64,000 nucleotides of DNA from Escherichia coli (GTDB lineage: Bacteria; Pseudomonadota; Gammaproteobacteria; Enterobacterales; Enterobacteriaceae): the NCBI RefSeq assembly GCF_041886205.1, contig NZ_CP169029.1. The stretch is one strand, 5' to 3'. Below, piece by piece: positions 5,090 to 51,840 of the stretch. A model generated the notes under the pieces. That model worked only from the letters and a program-made list of their open reading frames with translations. It searched no databases and was not told where the DNA came from. Every line of letters starts with the position of its first letter. Within the stretch, counting starts at the first letter, position 1. The position numbers and the translations under genes are program-made.

Positions 5090-6222
<1,133 letters not shown>

Positions 6223-6232
6223 GGAGCCTGAG

Positions 6233-7788
<1,556 letters not shown>

Positions 7789-22968: not shown

Positions 22969-23044
22969 GCCCGGATAGCTCAGTCGGTAGAGCAGGGGAT
23001 TGAAAATCCCCGTGTCCTTGGTTCGATTCCGAGTCCGGGCACCA
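22969..23044 (+). tRNA. pheU: tRNA-Phe (GAA anticodon)
   Basis: GCCCGGATAGCTCAGTCGGTAGAGCAGGGGATTGAAAATCCCCGTGTCCTTGGTTCGATTCCGAGTCCGGGCACCA; called pheU rather than pheV from yjdC flank. Confidence 0.97.
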
Positions 23045-23241: not shown

Positions 23242-24504
23242 ATGGCACTGACTGACGCAAAAATCCGGGCTGCAAAGCCCACTGACAAGGCTTATAAACT
23301 CACTGACGGGGCTGGCATGTTCCTACTGGTTCATCCTAATGGTTCCCGTTACTGGCGTCTCCGTTATCGTATTCTGGGTAAGGAGAAGACTCTGGCACTT
23401 GGTGTGTATCCAGAAGTTTCTCTCTCCGAAGCTCGTACAAAACGGGATGAGGCCCGAAAACTGATTTCGGAGGGGATTGACCCTTGCGAACTGAAAAGAG
23501 CTAAAAAAGTAGTCCCTGATTTACAACTCTCTTTTGAACATATTGCACGACGCTGGCATGCCAGTAATAAACAATGGGCACAATCACACAGCGATAAAGT
23601 ACTCAAAAGCCTCGAGACACACGTTTTCCCCTTTATCGGCAACCGGGATATCACAACACTCAGTACCCCGGACCTGCTTATCCCTGTTCGTGCTGCAGAA
23701 GCTAAACAAATTTATGAAATCGCCAGTCGTCTGCAGCAAAGAATATCTGCTGTAATGCGTTATGCCGTACAGTCTGGCATCATCAGATATAACCCGGCTC
23801 TGGATATGGCTGGTGCATTGACCACGGTAAAACGCCAGCATCGCCCTGCACTGGATCTTTCACGCCTGCCTGAACTTCTGTCGCGTATTGACGGTTATAA
23901 AGGCCAGCCTGTCACCCGACTGGCAGTTATGCTGAATTTACTGGTTTTTATTCGTTCCAGTGAACTCAGATACGCCCGCTGGTCTGAAATTGATATTGAC
24001 AATGCCATGTGGACTATTCCAGCCGAACGCGAACCTCTGCCTGGCGTAAAATTCTCACACCGGGGCTCCAAGATGCGAACACCACATCTTGTGCCACTCA
24101 GCAAACAGGCTGTAGCCATACTGGCAGAACTACAGACATGGGCTGGTGAAAATGGTCTGATCTTTACGGGAGCACATGACCCGCGTAAACCAATCAGTGA
24201 AAATACTGTAAATAAAGCCCTGAGGGTGATGGGGTATGACACAACCCAGGATGTCTGTGGCCATGGATTCCGGGCGATGGCGTGCAGTGCATTGATTGAA
24301 TCAGGTTTGTGGTCCCGCGATGCTGTGGAACGTCAGATGAGCCATCAGGAGCGTAATGGTGTACGTGCTGCGTATATCCATAAAGCAGAACATCTGGAAG
24401 AACGGCGACTGATGTTGCAATGGTGGGCCGATTTTCTGGATGCGAACCGGGAGAAGGGTATCAGTCCGTTTGAATATGCAAAAATTAACAATCCATTAAA
24501 ATAG
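23242..24504 (+). CDS. P4-family tyrosine integrase, tRNA-Phe associated
   Basis: 441-aa ORF, about 420-aa product from MALTDAKIRAAKPTDKAYKLTDGAG; C-terminal catalytic HGFR ... AAYIH (H-x-x-R / Tyr); immediately 3' of tRNA. Confidence 0.88.
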   Translation: MALTDAKIRAAKPTDKAYKLTDGAGMFLLVHPNGSRYWRLRYRILGKEKTLALGVYPEVSLSEARTKRDEARKLISEGIDPCELKRAKKVVPDLQLSFEHIARRWHASNKQWAQSHSDKVLKSLETHVFPFIGNRDITTLSTPDLLIPVRAAEAKQIYEIASRLQQRISAVMRYAVQSGIIRYNPALDMAGALTTVKRQHRPALDLSRLPELLSRIDGYKGQPVTRLAVMLNLLVFIRSSELRYARWSEIDIDNAMWTIPAEREPLPGVKFSHRGSKMRTPHLVPLSKQAVAILAELQTWAGENGLIFTGAHDPRKPISENTVNKALRVMGYDTTQDVCGHGFRAMACSALIESGLWSRDAVERQMSHQERNGVRAAYIHKAEHLEERRLMLQWWADFLDANREKGISPFEYAKINNPLK

Positions 24505-24590
24505 TAAGCAGTCCGGGCAATCAGCCCGGACTGCTGGTGATGCTGCCAACTTACTGATTTAGTGTATGATGGTGTTTTTGAGGTGCTCCA

Positions 24591-24866
24591 GTGGCTTCTG
24601 TTTCTATCAGCTGTCCCTCCTGTTCAGCTACTGACGGGGTGGTACGTAACGGCAAAAGCACCGCCGGACATCAGCGCTATCTCTGCTCTCACTGCCGTAA
24701 AACATGGCAACTGCAGTTCACTTACACCGCTTCTCAACCCGGTACGCACCAGAAAATCATTGATATGGCCATGAATGGCGTTGGATGCCGGGCAACTGCC
24801 CGCATTATGGGCGTTGGCCTCAACACGATTTTACGTCACTTAAAAAACTCAGGCCGCAGTCGGTAA
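24591..24866 (+). CDS. insA: IS1 InsA
   Basis: 91-aa [20 protein letters not shown]...; zinc-finger/HTH protein of IS1. Confidence 0.95.
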
Positions 24867-25288
24867 CCTCGCGCATACAGCCGGGCAGTGACGTCATCGT
24901 CTGCGCGGAAATGGACGAACAGTGGGGCTATGTCGGGGCTAAATCGCGCCAGCGCTGGCTGTTTTACGCGTATGACAGGCTCCGGAAGACGGTTGTTGCG
25001 CACGTATTCGGTGAACGCACTATGGCGACGCTGGAGCGTCTTCTGGGCCTGCTGTCGGCCTTTGAGGTCGTGGTATGGATGACGGATGGCTGGCCGCTTT
25101 ATGAATCACGCCTGAAGGGAGAACTGCACGTTATCAGCAAGCGATATACGCAGCGCATTGAGCGGCATAACCTGAATCTGAGGCAGCATCTGGCAAGGCT
25201 GGGCAGGAAGTCACTGTCGTTCTCAAAATCGGTGGAGCTGCATGACAAAGTTATCGGGCATTATCTGAACATAAAACACTATCAATAA
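24785..25288 (+). CDS. insB: IS1 InsB (expressed as InsAB' transposase by -1 frameshift)
   Basis: 167-aa ORF in -1 frame relative to insA; matches IS1 InsB. Confidence 0.9.
24840..24848 (+). promoter_or_regulatory. IS1 programmed -1 ribosomal frameshift site (TTAAAAAAC)
   Basis: A6C slippery run at the insA/insB overlap. Confidence 0.8.
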
Positions 25289-25354
25289 GTTGGAGTCATT
25301 ACCCGCTTTGCTTTAGCGAGAACTGGTCTTTTATTCGCACTCAGGAGTACATGT

Positions 25355-26116
25355 ATGAGGATTTGCAGCGACCAACCTTGTATTGTTTTATTGACTGAAA
25401 AAGATGTCTGGATAAGGGTGAATGGGAAAGAACCTATTAGCCTTAAAGCTAACCATATGGCGTTATTAAATTGTGAAAATAATATTATCGACGTCTCCTC
25501 TCTTAACAACACTTTGGTTGCTCATATTAGTCACGACATCATCAAAGATTACCTCCGGTTTCTGAATAAAGATCTCTCGCAAATACCAGTATGGCAACGT
25601 AGCGCTACGCCCATACTCACCCTGCCATGCCTGACGCCAGACGTCTTTCGCGTTGCCGCGCAACACAGCATGATGCCCGCAGAAACTGAGTCAGAAAAGG
25701 AACGAACACGCGCATTATTATTCACGGTGCTATCCCGTTTTCTCGACAGTAAAAAATTCGTTTCATTAATGATGTATATGTTACGTAATTGTGTAAGTGA
25801 CAGCGTTTATCAAATTATTGAAAGCGATATTCACAAAGACTGGAATCTTAGTATGGTAGCCAGTTGTTTATGTCTTAGCCCAAGTCTGTTAAAGAAAAAG
25901 TTGAAAAGCGAAAACACCAGTTATAGCCAAATAATCACCACCTGCCGCATGCGTTATGCCGTAAATGAATTAATGATGGACGGTAAAAATATCTCTCAGG
26001 TATCACAGTCCTGCGGCTACAACAGTACGTCGTACTTTATTTCTGTCTTTAAAGACTTCTACGGTATGACGCCGCTGCATTATGTTAGTCAGCACAGAGA
26101 ACGCACTGTCGCCTGA
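25355..26116 (+). CDS. adiY: AraC-family regulator AdiY
   Basis: 253-aa ORF; C-terminal AraC HTH; immediately upstream of adiC. Confidence 0.92.
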   Translation: MRICSDQPCIVLLTEKDVWIRVNGKEPISLKANHMALLNCENNIIDVSSLNNTLVAHISHDIIKDYLRFLNKDLSQIPVWQRSATPILTLPCLTPDVFRVAAQHSMMPAETESEKERTRALLFTVLSRFLDSKKFVSLMMYMLRNCVSDSVYQIIESDIHKDWNLSMVASCLCLSPSLLKKKLKSENTSYSQIITTCRMRYAVNELMMDGKNISQVSQSCGYNSTSYFISVFKDFYGMTPLHYVSQHRERTVA

Positions 26117-26252: not shown

Positions 26253-27590
26253 ATGTCTTCGGATGCTGATGCTCACAAAGTGGGCTTAATCCCCGTCACC
26301 CTGATGGTGTCGGGGAATATTATGGGGTCAGGTGTTTTTCTGTTACCTGCAAACCTGGCCTCTACTGGCGGGATTGCCATTTATGGATGGTTGGTGACGA
26401 TTATCGGTGCACTGGGGCTCTCGATGGTATACGCCAAAATGTCGTTCCTCGACCCAAGTCCTGGTGGTTCTTACGCTTACGCCCGCCGCTGCTTTGGCCC
26501 GTTTCTCGGTTATCAAACCAACGTCCTCTACTGGCTGGCCTGCTGGATCGGCAATATCGCCATGGTGGTCATTGGCGTAGGATATTTAAGTTACTTCTTC
26601 CCGATTCTGAAAGATCCATTGGTATTAACCATCACCTGCGTCGTGGTGCTGTGGATCTTCGTCCTGCTGAACATTGTCGGTCCGAAAATGATCACCCGTG
26701 TGCAGGCAGTTGCCACCGTGCTGGCGCTGATCCCCATCGTCGGGATTGCCGTATTTGGCTGGTTCTGGTTCCGTGGTGAAACCTATATGGCGGCATGGAA
26801 CGTCAGCGGCCTGGGCACCTTCGGTGCAATTCAAAGTACCCTTAACGTTACGCTGTGGTCGTTCATCGGTGTGGAAAGTGCCTCCGTTGCCGCAGGTGTG
26901 GTGAAAAACCCGAAACGCAATGTCCCTATCGCCACCATTGGTGGGGTATTGATTGCCGCCGTTTGCTATGTACTTTCTACCACCGCGATTATGGGGATGA
27001 TCCCTAATGCCGCACTGCGCGTTTCTGCTTCGCCATTCGGTGATGCCGCACGGATGGCGTTGGGTGACACCGCCGGGGCCATTGTTTCCTTCTGCGCAGC
27101 TGCGGGTTGCTTAGGTTCACTGGGCGGCTGGACGTTGCTGGCGGGTCAAACGGCGAAAGCCGCTGCCGATGACGGACTGTTCCCACCGATTTTTGCCCGT
27201 GTAAATAAAGCGGGTACGCCAGTGGCGGGGCTGATTATCGTCGGTATTTTGATGACCATCTTCCAGCTCAGCAGCATTTCACCAAACGCGACCAAAGAGT
27301 TCGGTCTGGTTTCTTCCGTCTCGGTCATCTTTACACTGGTGCCATATCTTTACACCTGTGCGGCGTTACTGCTGCTCGGACACGGTCACTTTGGTAAAGC
27401 ACGCCCGGCATATCTGGCAGTTACTACCATTGCCTTCCTCTACTGCATCTGGGCCGTGGTGGGGTCCGGAGCGAAAGAGGTTATGTGGTCATTTGTCACC
27501 CTGATGGTCATCACCGCCATGTATGCGCTGAATTACAACCGGCTACATAAAAACCCGTATCCCTTAGATGCACCAATAAGCAAAGATTAA
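26253..27590 (+). CDS. adiC: arginine:agmatine antiporter AdiC
   Basis: 445-aa APC-family transporter ORF. Confidence 0.95.
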
Positions 27591-27613: not shown

Positions 27614-27650
27614 AAAGCCAACCTTAAGAACTTAAGGTTGGCTTAATTTT
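27614..27650 (+). terminator. adiC rho-independent terminator
   Basis: palindrome AAAGCCAACCTTAAG-aa-CTTAAGGTTGGCTT followed by AATTTT. Confidence 0.8.
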
Positions 27651-51632: not shown

Positions 51633-51840
51633 TGTCACTCGCTTTTGGGGGCGCTGAAGCCCCCAAAAGCATTTATTTTAAAAATATATACAGCCAATTA
51701 ATAAATAAAATATATAAGTTATGAATGCGGTGGCTGAATAAAGCTATTTTTATTCATCGAGAAAATAGCCATACTGACGCCTTCAATGGATATTGATATT
51801 CACTACAGATATTGTTCGCAGCAGACAGGATGTATTTAAT

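Follow-up and report, generated by a model that had tools for sequence, protein, structure and literature searches.

Why does a single IS1 in an Escherichia coli chromosome stand between the integrase gene of a genomic island and adiY, flanked by two 9-mers that are similar but not identical? The element occupies positions 24536-25303 (+ strand) of the window, i.e., of the whole 64-kb stretch of DNA that was analysed. It is 768 bp long and apparently intact, judging from its terminal repeats and Pfam domains. The left terminal repeat (IRL, GGTGATGCTGCCAACTTACTGAT; 24536-24558, + strand) is an exact match, as is the right one (IRR, 25281-25303, minus strand; repeat pair GGTGATGCTGCCAACTTACTGAT / GGTAATGACTCCAACTTATTGAT). 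The frames of insA (24591-24866, + strand) and insB' (24785-25288, + strand) are both intact, the A6C frameshift site TTAAAAAAC can be read directly from the sequence at 24840-24848 (+ strand), and the products carry the Zn_ribbon_InsA, HTH_Tnp_IS1 and DDE_Tnp_IS1 domains (Pfam). With a length of ~768 bp, imperfect inverted repeats of ~23 bp and insA and insB' joined by a -1 frameshift at A6C, the element qualifies as a genuine IS1. A terminal-repeat search found no second copy in the 64-kb window; complete E. coli genomes carry IS1 at a median of 11 places.

Simple insertion of IS1 is marked by a perfect direct duplication of 8-9 bp, and no such duplication borders 24536-25303. The left flank, CGGACTGCT (24527-24535), is one IS1 target and belongs to the 3' arm of a hairpin; the right flank, CGCTTTGCT (25304-25312), is a recurrent IS1 target situated 51 bp ahead of the adiY start codon. 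A previous reading of this DNA, made from the sequence only, had pointed out that the two 9-mers agree at 6/9 positions instead of forming a clean 9-bp duplication, and direct comparison of CGGACTGCT with CGCTTTGCT bears this out. A 6/9 match is expected by chance at a frequency of 1.0% (binomial) or 1.2% (random 9-mer pairs from the window), and the identity of the terminal TGCT of the two 9-mers at 0.47%. These values can be set against the flanks of 47 full and distinct IS1 copies, most of which come from species-representative genomes of other species: 20 copies are bordered by a perfect duplication of 8-9 bp, the other 27 by none. Among the latter, most flank pairs match at 0-4 of nine positions, with one copy at 5, one at 7 and the copy in the window at 6. 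The absence of a duplication is commonplace for IS1, and the 6/9 resemblance is mildly unusual, not extraordinary.

To the left of the element lies the pheU locus. A tRNA-Phe gene (GAA anticodon; 22969-23044, + strand), identified by ARAGORN and by its upstream gene context, constitutes pheU, the site at which the island is attached; the genes that precede it (aspA-dcuA-cutA-dsbD-dicD) form the pheU context of relatives. Immediately downstream is an intact gene for a P4-type tyrosine integrase of 420 aa (23242-24504, + strand; coding limits as annotated), in which Pfam recognizes arm-binding, central and catalytic domains (Arm-DNA-bind_3, Phage_int_M and Phage_integrase). The same succession of tRNA-Phe and integrase occurs at pheU and pheV of relatives, and the exact integrase protein is found on 20 contigs, at one or the other of these loci. 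The segment 23900-24535, from the 3' end of int through the hairpin, is 100% identical over 636 bp to strain ZYB39 at pheU. The IS-free counterparts of this region, which the sequence-only reading had proposed to consult, are provided by ZYB39 (pheU), SCU-102 (pheV) and six draft genomes with the identical protein. Across the point where IS1 begins in the window these carriers read ...GCCCGGACTGCT|TTAACTGATTATTTTTC, i.e., the hairpin ends in ...GGACTGCT and is followed by TTAACTGATTATTTTTC and then by island genes. In intact islands, CGGACTGCT is thus continued by TTAACTG, and ~450 bp further on lies a gene for a 1,171-aa protein with AAA and PLD domains; the island of ZYB39 alone exceeds 50 kb. 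The integrase is the sole surviving gene of the pheU genomic island in the window. A second copy of the tRNA 3' end (attR) was not found in the window with up to 3 mismatches allowed, so the integrase is stranded; attR was presumably lost together with the deletion described below.

The right flank comes from a different place. From the first base past IS1 it corresponds to the adiA-adiY intergenic region, and 25304-25900, which reaches into adiY, is 100% identical to K-12. Across the right joint K-12 reads ...CCCGGTAT|CGCTTTGCTTTAGCG (in a longer reading of the spacer, ...CCCGGTAT|CGCTTTGCTTTAGCGAG), with adiA preceding and the adiY ATG 51 bp after the joint. The adiY gene (25355-26116, + strand), assigned by identity to K-12 and a Pfam HTH_AraC domain, encodes an AraC-type activator and now lacks adiA upstream. 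It is followed by adiC (26253-27590, + strand; annotation of relatives, Pfam AA_permease_2), which encodes the arginine/agmatine antiporter and is without its decarboxylase partner. IS1 now separates adiY from most of its native upstream region. This comparison also disposes of the idea that a simple insertion took place and that its 9-bp duplication subsequently decayed by three substitutions. Such decay would fit the six shared bases of nine, but it is refuted by the origin of the flanks, which come from different loci, are each base-perfect relative to their own IS-free counterpart and belong to genes that are neighbours in no relative (int nowhere adjoins adiY).

Both flanks thus follow their own IS-free counterparts without a mismatch up to the IS1 termini, and in these relatives the two points are collinear but not adjacent. 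With a single IS1 placed exactly at the joint of such points, the flanks represent two unrelated targets without a duplication. The two flanks keep their ancestral relative orientation: the blocks aligned to the nearest complete relative, wlxctx60, run the same way round in both genomes, which indicates a deletion and not an inversion, and the latter was rejected. What is missing depends on the genome used for comparison. Relative to wlxctx60, which is already devoid of the cad genes, the interval measures 17.3 kb. In strain N1, which has a comparable island and an integrase with 99.8% identity, the junction points lie ~81 kb apart. In K-12 the interval comprises 24,456 bp and 19 genes: cadC, cadB, cadA, dtpC, lysU, ghoT, ghoS, yjdJ, yjdI, dcuS, dcuR, dcuB, fumB, yjdF, melB, melA, melR, adiA and an integrase pseudogene remnant adjoining pheU. 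Neither cadA nor adiA is present within the 64-kb window.

Taken together, the comparisons indicate that the IS1 at 24536-25303 is very probably the scar of an IS1-bounded chromosomal deletion of at least 24 kb. The sequence-only reading had suggested that the element marks a deletion or recombination junction, and the continuation of the left flank into island DNA and the position of the right flank after adiA, collinear in relatives, agree with that suggestion. The contrary case that it had named, an IS-free relative in which int is directly followed by adiY, does not occur in any of the 5,426 complete E. coli genomes. None of these genomes has even 80% of the int-adiY junction in one place, the same junction gave 0 matches in metagenome contigs, and no literature specific to it was found (searches for pheU/cadA/IS1 and for adiY/IS1).

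A junction found in one assembly could also have been made by the assembler: if IS1 were present both at the hairpin and at adiY and the two copies were collapsed, with the interval between them dropped from the contig, exactly such a structure would result, and draft assemblies with the same integrase do break at the hairpin. However, the window is otherwise collinear with its relatives, having 9 mismatches in 23 kb to one and 11 in 34.7 kb to another. In detail, positions 1-23158 differ from wlxctx60 at 9 positions and the sequence from 25304 onwards at 0 in 1803 bp, and the alignment with 6EVA covers 34.7 kb with 11 mismatches. Moreover, the collapse of a 768-bp repeat with loss of at least 17 kb of unique sequence would be unusual for long-read assemblies, and comparable real deletions lie beside pheU in finished genomes. 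An artefact is accordingly judged quite improbable. A Shigella origin of the DNA was considered as well and rejected, given 99.96-100% identity to the commensal E. coli wlxctx60 and 6EVA; the presence of only one IS1 in 64 kb and the retention of adiA in S. flexneri speak against it too.

How might the deletion have come about? Relatives suggest the ancestral order pheU - int - hairpin - island interior - cadCBA...adiA - adiY - adiC, of which the stretch that begins at the foot of the int hairpin and ends 51 bp before adiY would have been removed. IS1 would first have inserted at one of the two sites, and the adiY site is the likelier start, since a simple insertion there exists in other strains and an IS1 at the hairpin foot was nowhere found. 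With its distal end, IS1 would then have targeted the second site within that chromosome, and the interval would have been lost. Such a one-ended intramolecular ('abortive') transposition of IS1 appears to be the most likely route, and would account for somewhat more than half of the weight that we give to deletion scenarios. The evidence favouring this route is weak, because the IS1 variant is unlike that of KFu022 and event-specific chimerism is lacking. As neither a sister genome with the junction nor a precursor at the hairpin site was found, we can only infer the order of events and the route.

The adiY site has been hit in other strains. KFu022 and TOE3 have IS1 at the identical position and in the identical orientation, with a perfect duplication of CGCTTTGCT and an intact adiA. 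The IS1 copies of the window, KFu022 and TOE3 differ pairwise at 22-41 of 768 positions (22/768 between the window and KFu022), whereas the flanks of the window differ at only 2 of 5,300 bases from those of KFu022 and at 24 of 5,300 from those of TOE3. The greater divergence of the IS1 copies speaks for independent hits at the site or for gene conversion between IS1 copies at a later time, and the element in the window is not simply one ancestral insertion shared with KFu022. Possible precursor states are seen at the adiY site, where they carry different IS1 variants, and none at the hairpin foot: an IS1 there with a duplication of CGGACTGCT is absent from the 5,426 complete genomes and from metagenome contigs.

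The existence of these simple insertions also lends itself to a second route, in which two IS1 copies in direct orientation, one at each site and each with its own duplication (CGGACTGCT and CGCTTTGCT), recombine in a RecA-dependent manner. The interval would be excised together with one IS1 copy, and the product would be identical to that of transposition (compare PMC4173774). The known adiY-site insertions in KFu022 and TOE3, the recurrence of IS junctions in or near the hairpin and the multicopy nature of IS1 in most E. coli (median of 11 places per genome) are all consistent with such an exchange. It requires two earlier insertions plus one exchange, however, and an IS1 flanked by duplicated CGGACTGCT at the foot of the hairpin was seen in no genome or metagenome contig. 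Nor is there event-specific chimerism of the IS1, although this is uninformative if both parents were of the same variant. Compared with the KFu022 copy (IS1A), the differences of the window element bunch at positions 500-717 in a hybrid-like manner. The top match to it among complete E. coli genomes is 99.2%, and copies on other, unrelated contigs show a single difference (position 109). The occurrence of the same variant elsewhere and of these single-base-different copies dates the mosaic to before the deletion event, which makes the chimerism test uninformative. That the element is a chimera produced by recombination between two IS1 copies was rejected, as the same variant is present elsewhere in E. 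coli; it appears to be a circulating variant without event-specific chimerism. Recombination between direct repeats is thus possible but overall unlikely, and we assign to it about a third of the weight given to deletion scenarios.

The four bases shared at the joint suggest yet another route, which starts from an IS1 at the adiY site and continues with a transposase-free switch of the replication template, deleting the interval, from TGCT at the hairpin foot to TGCT of the left duplication. The 4-bp identity lies exactly at the joint (chance 0.47%), and the strong hairpin at the left end point might be a place where replication stalls. On the other hand, the right end point would have to lie by mere coincidence within the 4 bp that touch the IS1 terminus, and additional matches (CG at the start, TTA after) would have been left unused. 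Over 17 kb or more, template switching on 4 bp of homology is far rarer than adjacent deletion promoted by IS1, which counts against this route, and we regard it as highly improbable.

The left end point is formed by the foot of a hairpin that starts 3 nt past the int stop codon. The sequence-only reading had described a perfect 11-bp palindrome, GCAGTCCGGGC-aatca-GCCCGGACTGC, at 24508-24534. The palindrome is real but was under-called, because the stem in the window has 12 bp with a 5-nt loop (24507-24535) and that of the same hairpin in IS-free relatives 13 bp. Perfect hairpins of this kind (arms of 11 bp or longer, loops of 3-8 nt) occur only three times in the 64 kb. The predicted free energy is -25.6 kcal/mol (z = -8.7), which 0 of 200 shuffled sequences attain, and the hairpins compared range from -25.6 to -28 kcal/mol (z = -6 to -8.7). 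The palindrome had also been said to have no T-tract. This holds for the + strand, where IS1 (GGTGATG) directly follows the stem and a U-rich tract is missing. It does not hold for the minus strand, on which the stem is followed by TACTATTTTA and the structure is scored as terminator-like; the minus-strand tail ACTATTTTAA is called by the terminator scan in the intact island and in the window alike. The intact + strand tail of IS-free relatives, TAACTGATTATTTTT, is weak, and a consensus terminator scan does not recognize it; in this integrase variant the tail (TTTAACTGATTATTTTT) was never a canonical U-tract, even when intact.

Diverged integrase variants clarify the function of the hairpin. 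Both L120 and L121 (tcmA_3, strain 042) have a hairpin at the homologous position with the CCGGGC/GCCCGG core retained, and in both it is followed by a T-rich + strand tail. The lower stem reads GCAGT/ACTGC in the present variant (L001) compared with AAAAT/ATTTT in L121 and is different again in L120, and all three fold. Because the core is shared, the lower stems compensate and the variants have T-rich tails, the hairpin can be read as a conserved intrinsic terminator; the comparison, which includes only three integrase variants, supports its assignment as the putative int terminator, kept as a structure through compensatory changes. The 3' foot of this integrase terminator was cut by IS1, at the cost of one stem pair and of the tail on the + strand. 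The expression 'truncated terminator', which the sequence-only reading had offered as one option, is therefore a fair description.

The other option offered, a structured insertion hotspot, finds regional support only. In L73, an IS1 without a target-site duplication interrupts the first arm of the hairpin (TAAGCAGTC|IS1), 22 bp to the left of the joint in the window; its other end lies within an island gene, so that this copy bounds another deletion. Draft contigs with the identical integrase end at the base where IS1 begins in L73 (L134), at ...GGACTG (L133) or 111 bp past the stop codon (L132). Contig ends near the hairpin suggest repeat boundaries and are not proof of them. In tcmA_3 and 042, IS1 copies without duplications lie 129 and 326 bp past the related int. 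Since IS junctions recur within or just after the hairpin in other strains, the notion of a hotspot is supported at the level of the region, and both junction points are recurrent IS1 targets.

The similarity of the two targets extends beyond the 9-mers. The ancestral sequences CGGACTGCTTTAAC and CGCTTTGCTTTAGC (i.e., CGGACTGCT+TTAAC and CGCTTTGCT+TTAGC) share 10 of their 14 positions. When pairs of 14-mers are drawn at random from the window, 11 or more positions agree with a frequency of 7.5e-5, and 10/14 is somewhat commoner. No TGCT or TTA motif is shared among the 20 sampled IS1 duplications, and a strong target consensus therefore does not explain the resemblance of the flanks; a general IS1 target motif behind the 6/9 match was rejected on the same grounds. 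We treat the 10/14 likeness as a post hoc coincidence or a weak target preference, which leaves the main conclusion unchanged. The deletion model itself leaves the likeness (6/9, or 10/14 in the ancestral targets) unexplained, save by chance or target preference. A more far-reaching reading is that the hairpin foot and the 9-mer upstream of adiY are sequence-directed IS1 targets that together make up a programmed fragile site. It draws on the 10/14 likeness and on the presence of three IS1 variants at the identical adiY site and orientation. If it were correct, the fusion of pheU islands to adiY by IS1, with loss of the cad-adi acid-resistance region, would be a recurrent and predictable event; we consider this very unlikely.

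Gene content allows some predictions about the strain. Lysine decarboxylase (cadBA) and arginine decarboxylase (adiA) are predicted to be absent, and with them both of the amino acid-dependent acid-resistance systems that they support. Likewise, the loss of melibiose use, of part of the anaerobic fumarate and C4-dicarboxylate functions (fumB, dcuB, dcuSR) and of lysU is predicted. The adiY-adiC pair would be orphaned and the island integrase stranded. Loss of adiA is rare and that of cadA commoner: of the 5,426 complete E. coli genomes, 5,411 (99.7%) contain adiA and 15 lack it, 5,413 contain adiY, and 5,211 contain cadA and 215 lack it. The deletion in the window would start inside a fresh island and extend through adiA, which is present in almost every E. 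coli. For annotation, this means that the IS1 is to be described as a probable deletion scar.

The hairpin, the position of the deletion and its presumed mechanism all have counterparts in known systems. The hairpin resembles the terminators that follow P4-type island integrases, in that a stem-loop with a GC core (CCGGGC/GCCCGG) comes right after the stop codon; unlike these, it has a weak + strand tail even when intact, and in the window the left end of IS1 replaces the tail. Deletions of cad beside pheU are typical of Shigella, and Maurelli et al. in 1998 and Day et al. in 2001 reportedly described 'black hole' deletions of the cad region in Shigella and enteroinvasive E. coli. The event in the window shares with these the neighbourhood of pheU and the loss of cadCBA, accompanied by IS elements and remnants of P4-like integrases. 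It differs in that the lineage is of commensal type, near-identical to bear and human faecal strains, and in that the deletion is far longer and takes adiA as well, which S. flexneri keeps. Loss of cad has been mentioned as a pathoadaptive mutation (PMC4229854); no link to virulence has been demonstrated for the deletion in the window. The commensal relatives wlxctx60 and KFu022 carry independent IS-bounded deletions in the pheU-cad neighbourhood. With several such independent deletions beside pheU, the present instance is a further sign that the region is prone to deletions.

As to mechanism, the classic work on adjacent deletions by IS1 is said to be that of Reif and Saedler in 1975, and Turlan and Chandler reportedly dealt with intramolecular replicative IS1 deletions in 1995. 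The event in the window is like IS1-promoted adjacent deletions in leaving one IS1, in starting at an IS1 terminus and ending at a new target, in lacking a target duplication and in the loss of tens of kb of chromosome; unlike them, it is read from comparative sequence alone. An IS1 with two unrelated, collinear flanks would by this analogy be the textbook product of such a deletion. Large IS1-associated deletions in clinical E. coli have been attributed to a nick at one IS1 end, which is then ligated to a target within the same molecule, the 'abortive transposition model' (PMC10569738). In experimental evolution of E. coli, IS1 insertions were followed by an IS1-mediated deletion that left a single IS1 (PMC4173774). 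The single-IS1 outcome is shared with the window, but there the host was laboratory E. coli B, whereas here it is a natural isolate and another locus is affected. The event thus belongs to an ordinary and well-understood kind of IS1 rearrangement and reveals no new mechanism.

Three genomes have an IS1 copy, oriented identically, at the 9-mer CGCTTTGCT, which lies 51 bp upstream of adiY: the window (25304-25312), KFu022 (locus L004, 4996-5781) and TOE3 (locus L005, 4996-5781). The IS1 variants at this site differ from one another at 22-41 of 768 bases, while their flanks show only 0.04-0.5% divergence. This contrast suggests either that the 9-mer is a hot spot for IS1 at the exact site or that gene conversion between IS1 copies has occurred. 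A search of complete E. coli genomes for the junction also returned, among its matches, several further IS1 positions around adiY.

The two ancestral end points of the deletion resemble each other: CGGACTGCTTTAAC (window 24527-24535 together with 6627-6640 of the intact ZYB39 island, L001) and CGCTTTGCTTTAGC (window 25304-25317) are identical at 10 of 14 positions, and CCCGG is also present a few bases upstream of both. A sample of 20 IS1 sites yielded no general target motif that would account for this match.

The terminator hairpin of the integrase keeps a constant CCGGGC/GCCCGG core in three integrase variants, those of ZYB39 (6598-6656), tcmA_3 (L120, 4262-4320) and 042 (L121, 4262-4320), and its lower stem varies among them by compensatory substitutions. 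Besides this hairpin, the window contains just two perfect hairpins whose arms reach 11 bp or more, at 27615-27644 and 51641-51670; the former, positioned directly after the stop codon of adiC, is probably the terminator of that gene. In Phe-tRNA islands, IS junctions or contig breaks cluster 0-330 bp past the integrase stop codon, as seen in L73 (L006, 5270-5290), tcmA_3 (4430), 042 (4627) and the ends of three draft contigs whose integrase is identical to that of the window (L132-L134). All resolved IS1 copies at these positions have IRL toward int, and all lack a duplication.

In a scan of reference genomes, the exact 30-base left end of IS1 was matched in six assemblies labelled Streptomyces morookaense (L017), Clostridia MAG (L018), Sporosarcina MAG (L039), Paenochrobactrum MAG (L050), Bacillus sanguinis (L069) and Scytonema hofmanni (L081). 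Most of these matches come from short contigs or lie at the end of a contig, and they look like enterobacterial contamination rather than native IS1.

Close relatives carry separate deletions. In wlxctx60 (L007, 18100-19340) and KFu022 (L123, 15300-16900), an IS-bounded deletion, different in each, starts from an old integrase remnant beside pheU and has removed cadCBA; the joint leads from a divergent IS1-family element into truncated dtpC in wlxctx60, and from IS1A into yjdJ in KFu022. Among 5,426 complete E. coli genomes, cadA is missing in 215 and adiA in 15. In wlxctx60 (5734-7736) and 6EVA (L008, 9068-11070), yjdF directly follows melA with no annotated melB, an arrangement from which K-12 and KFu022 differ.
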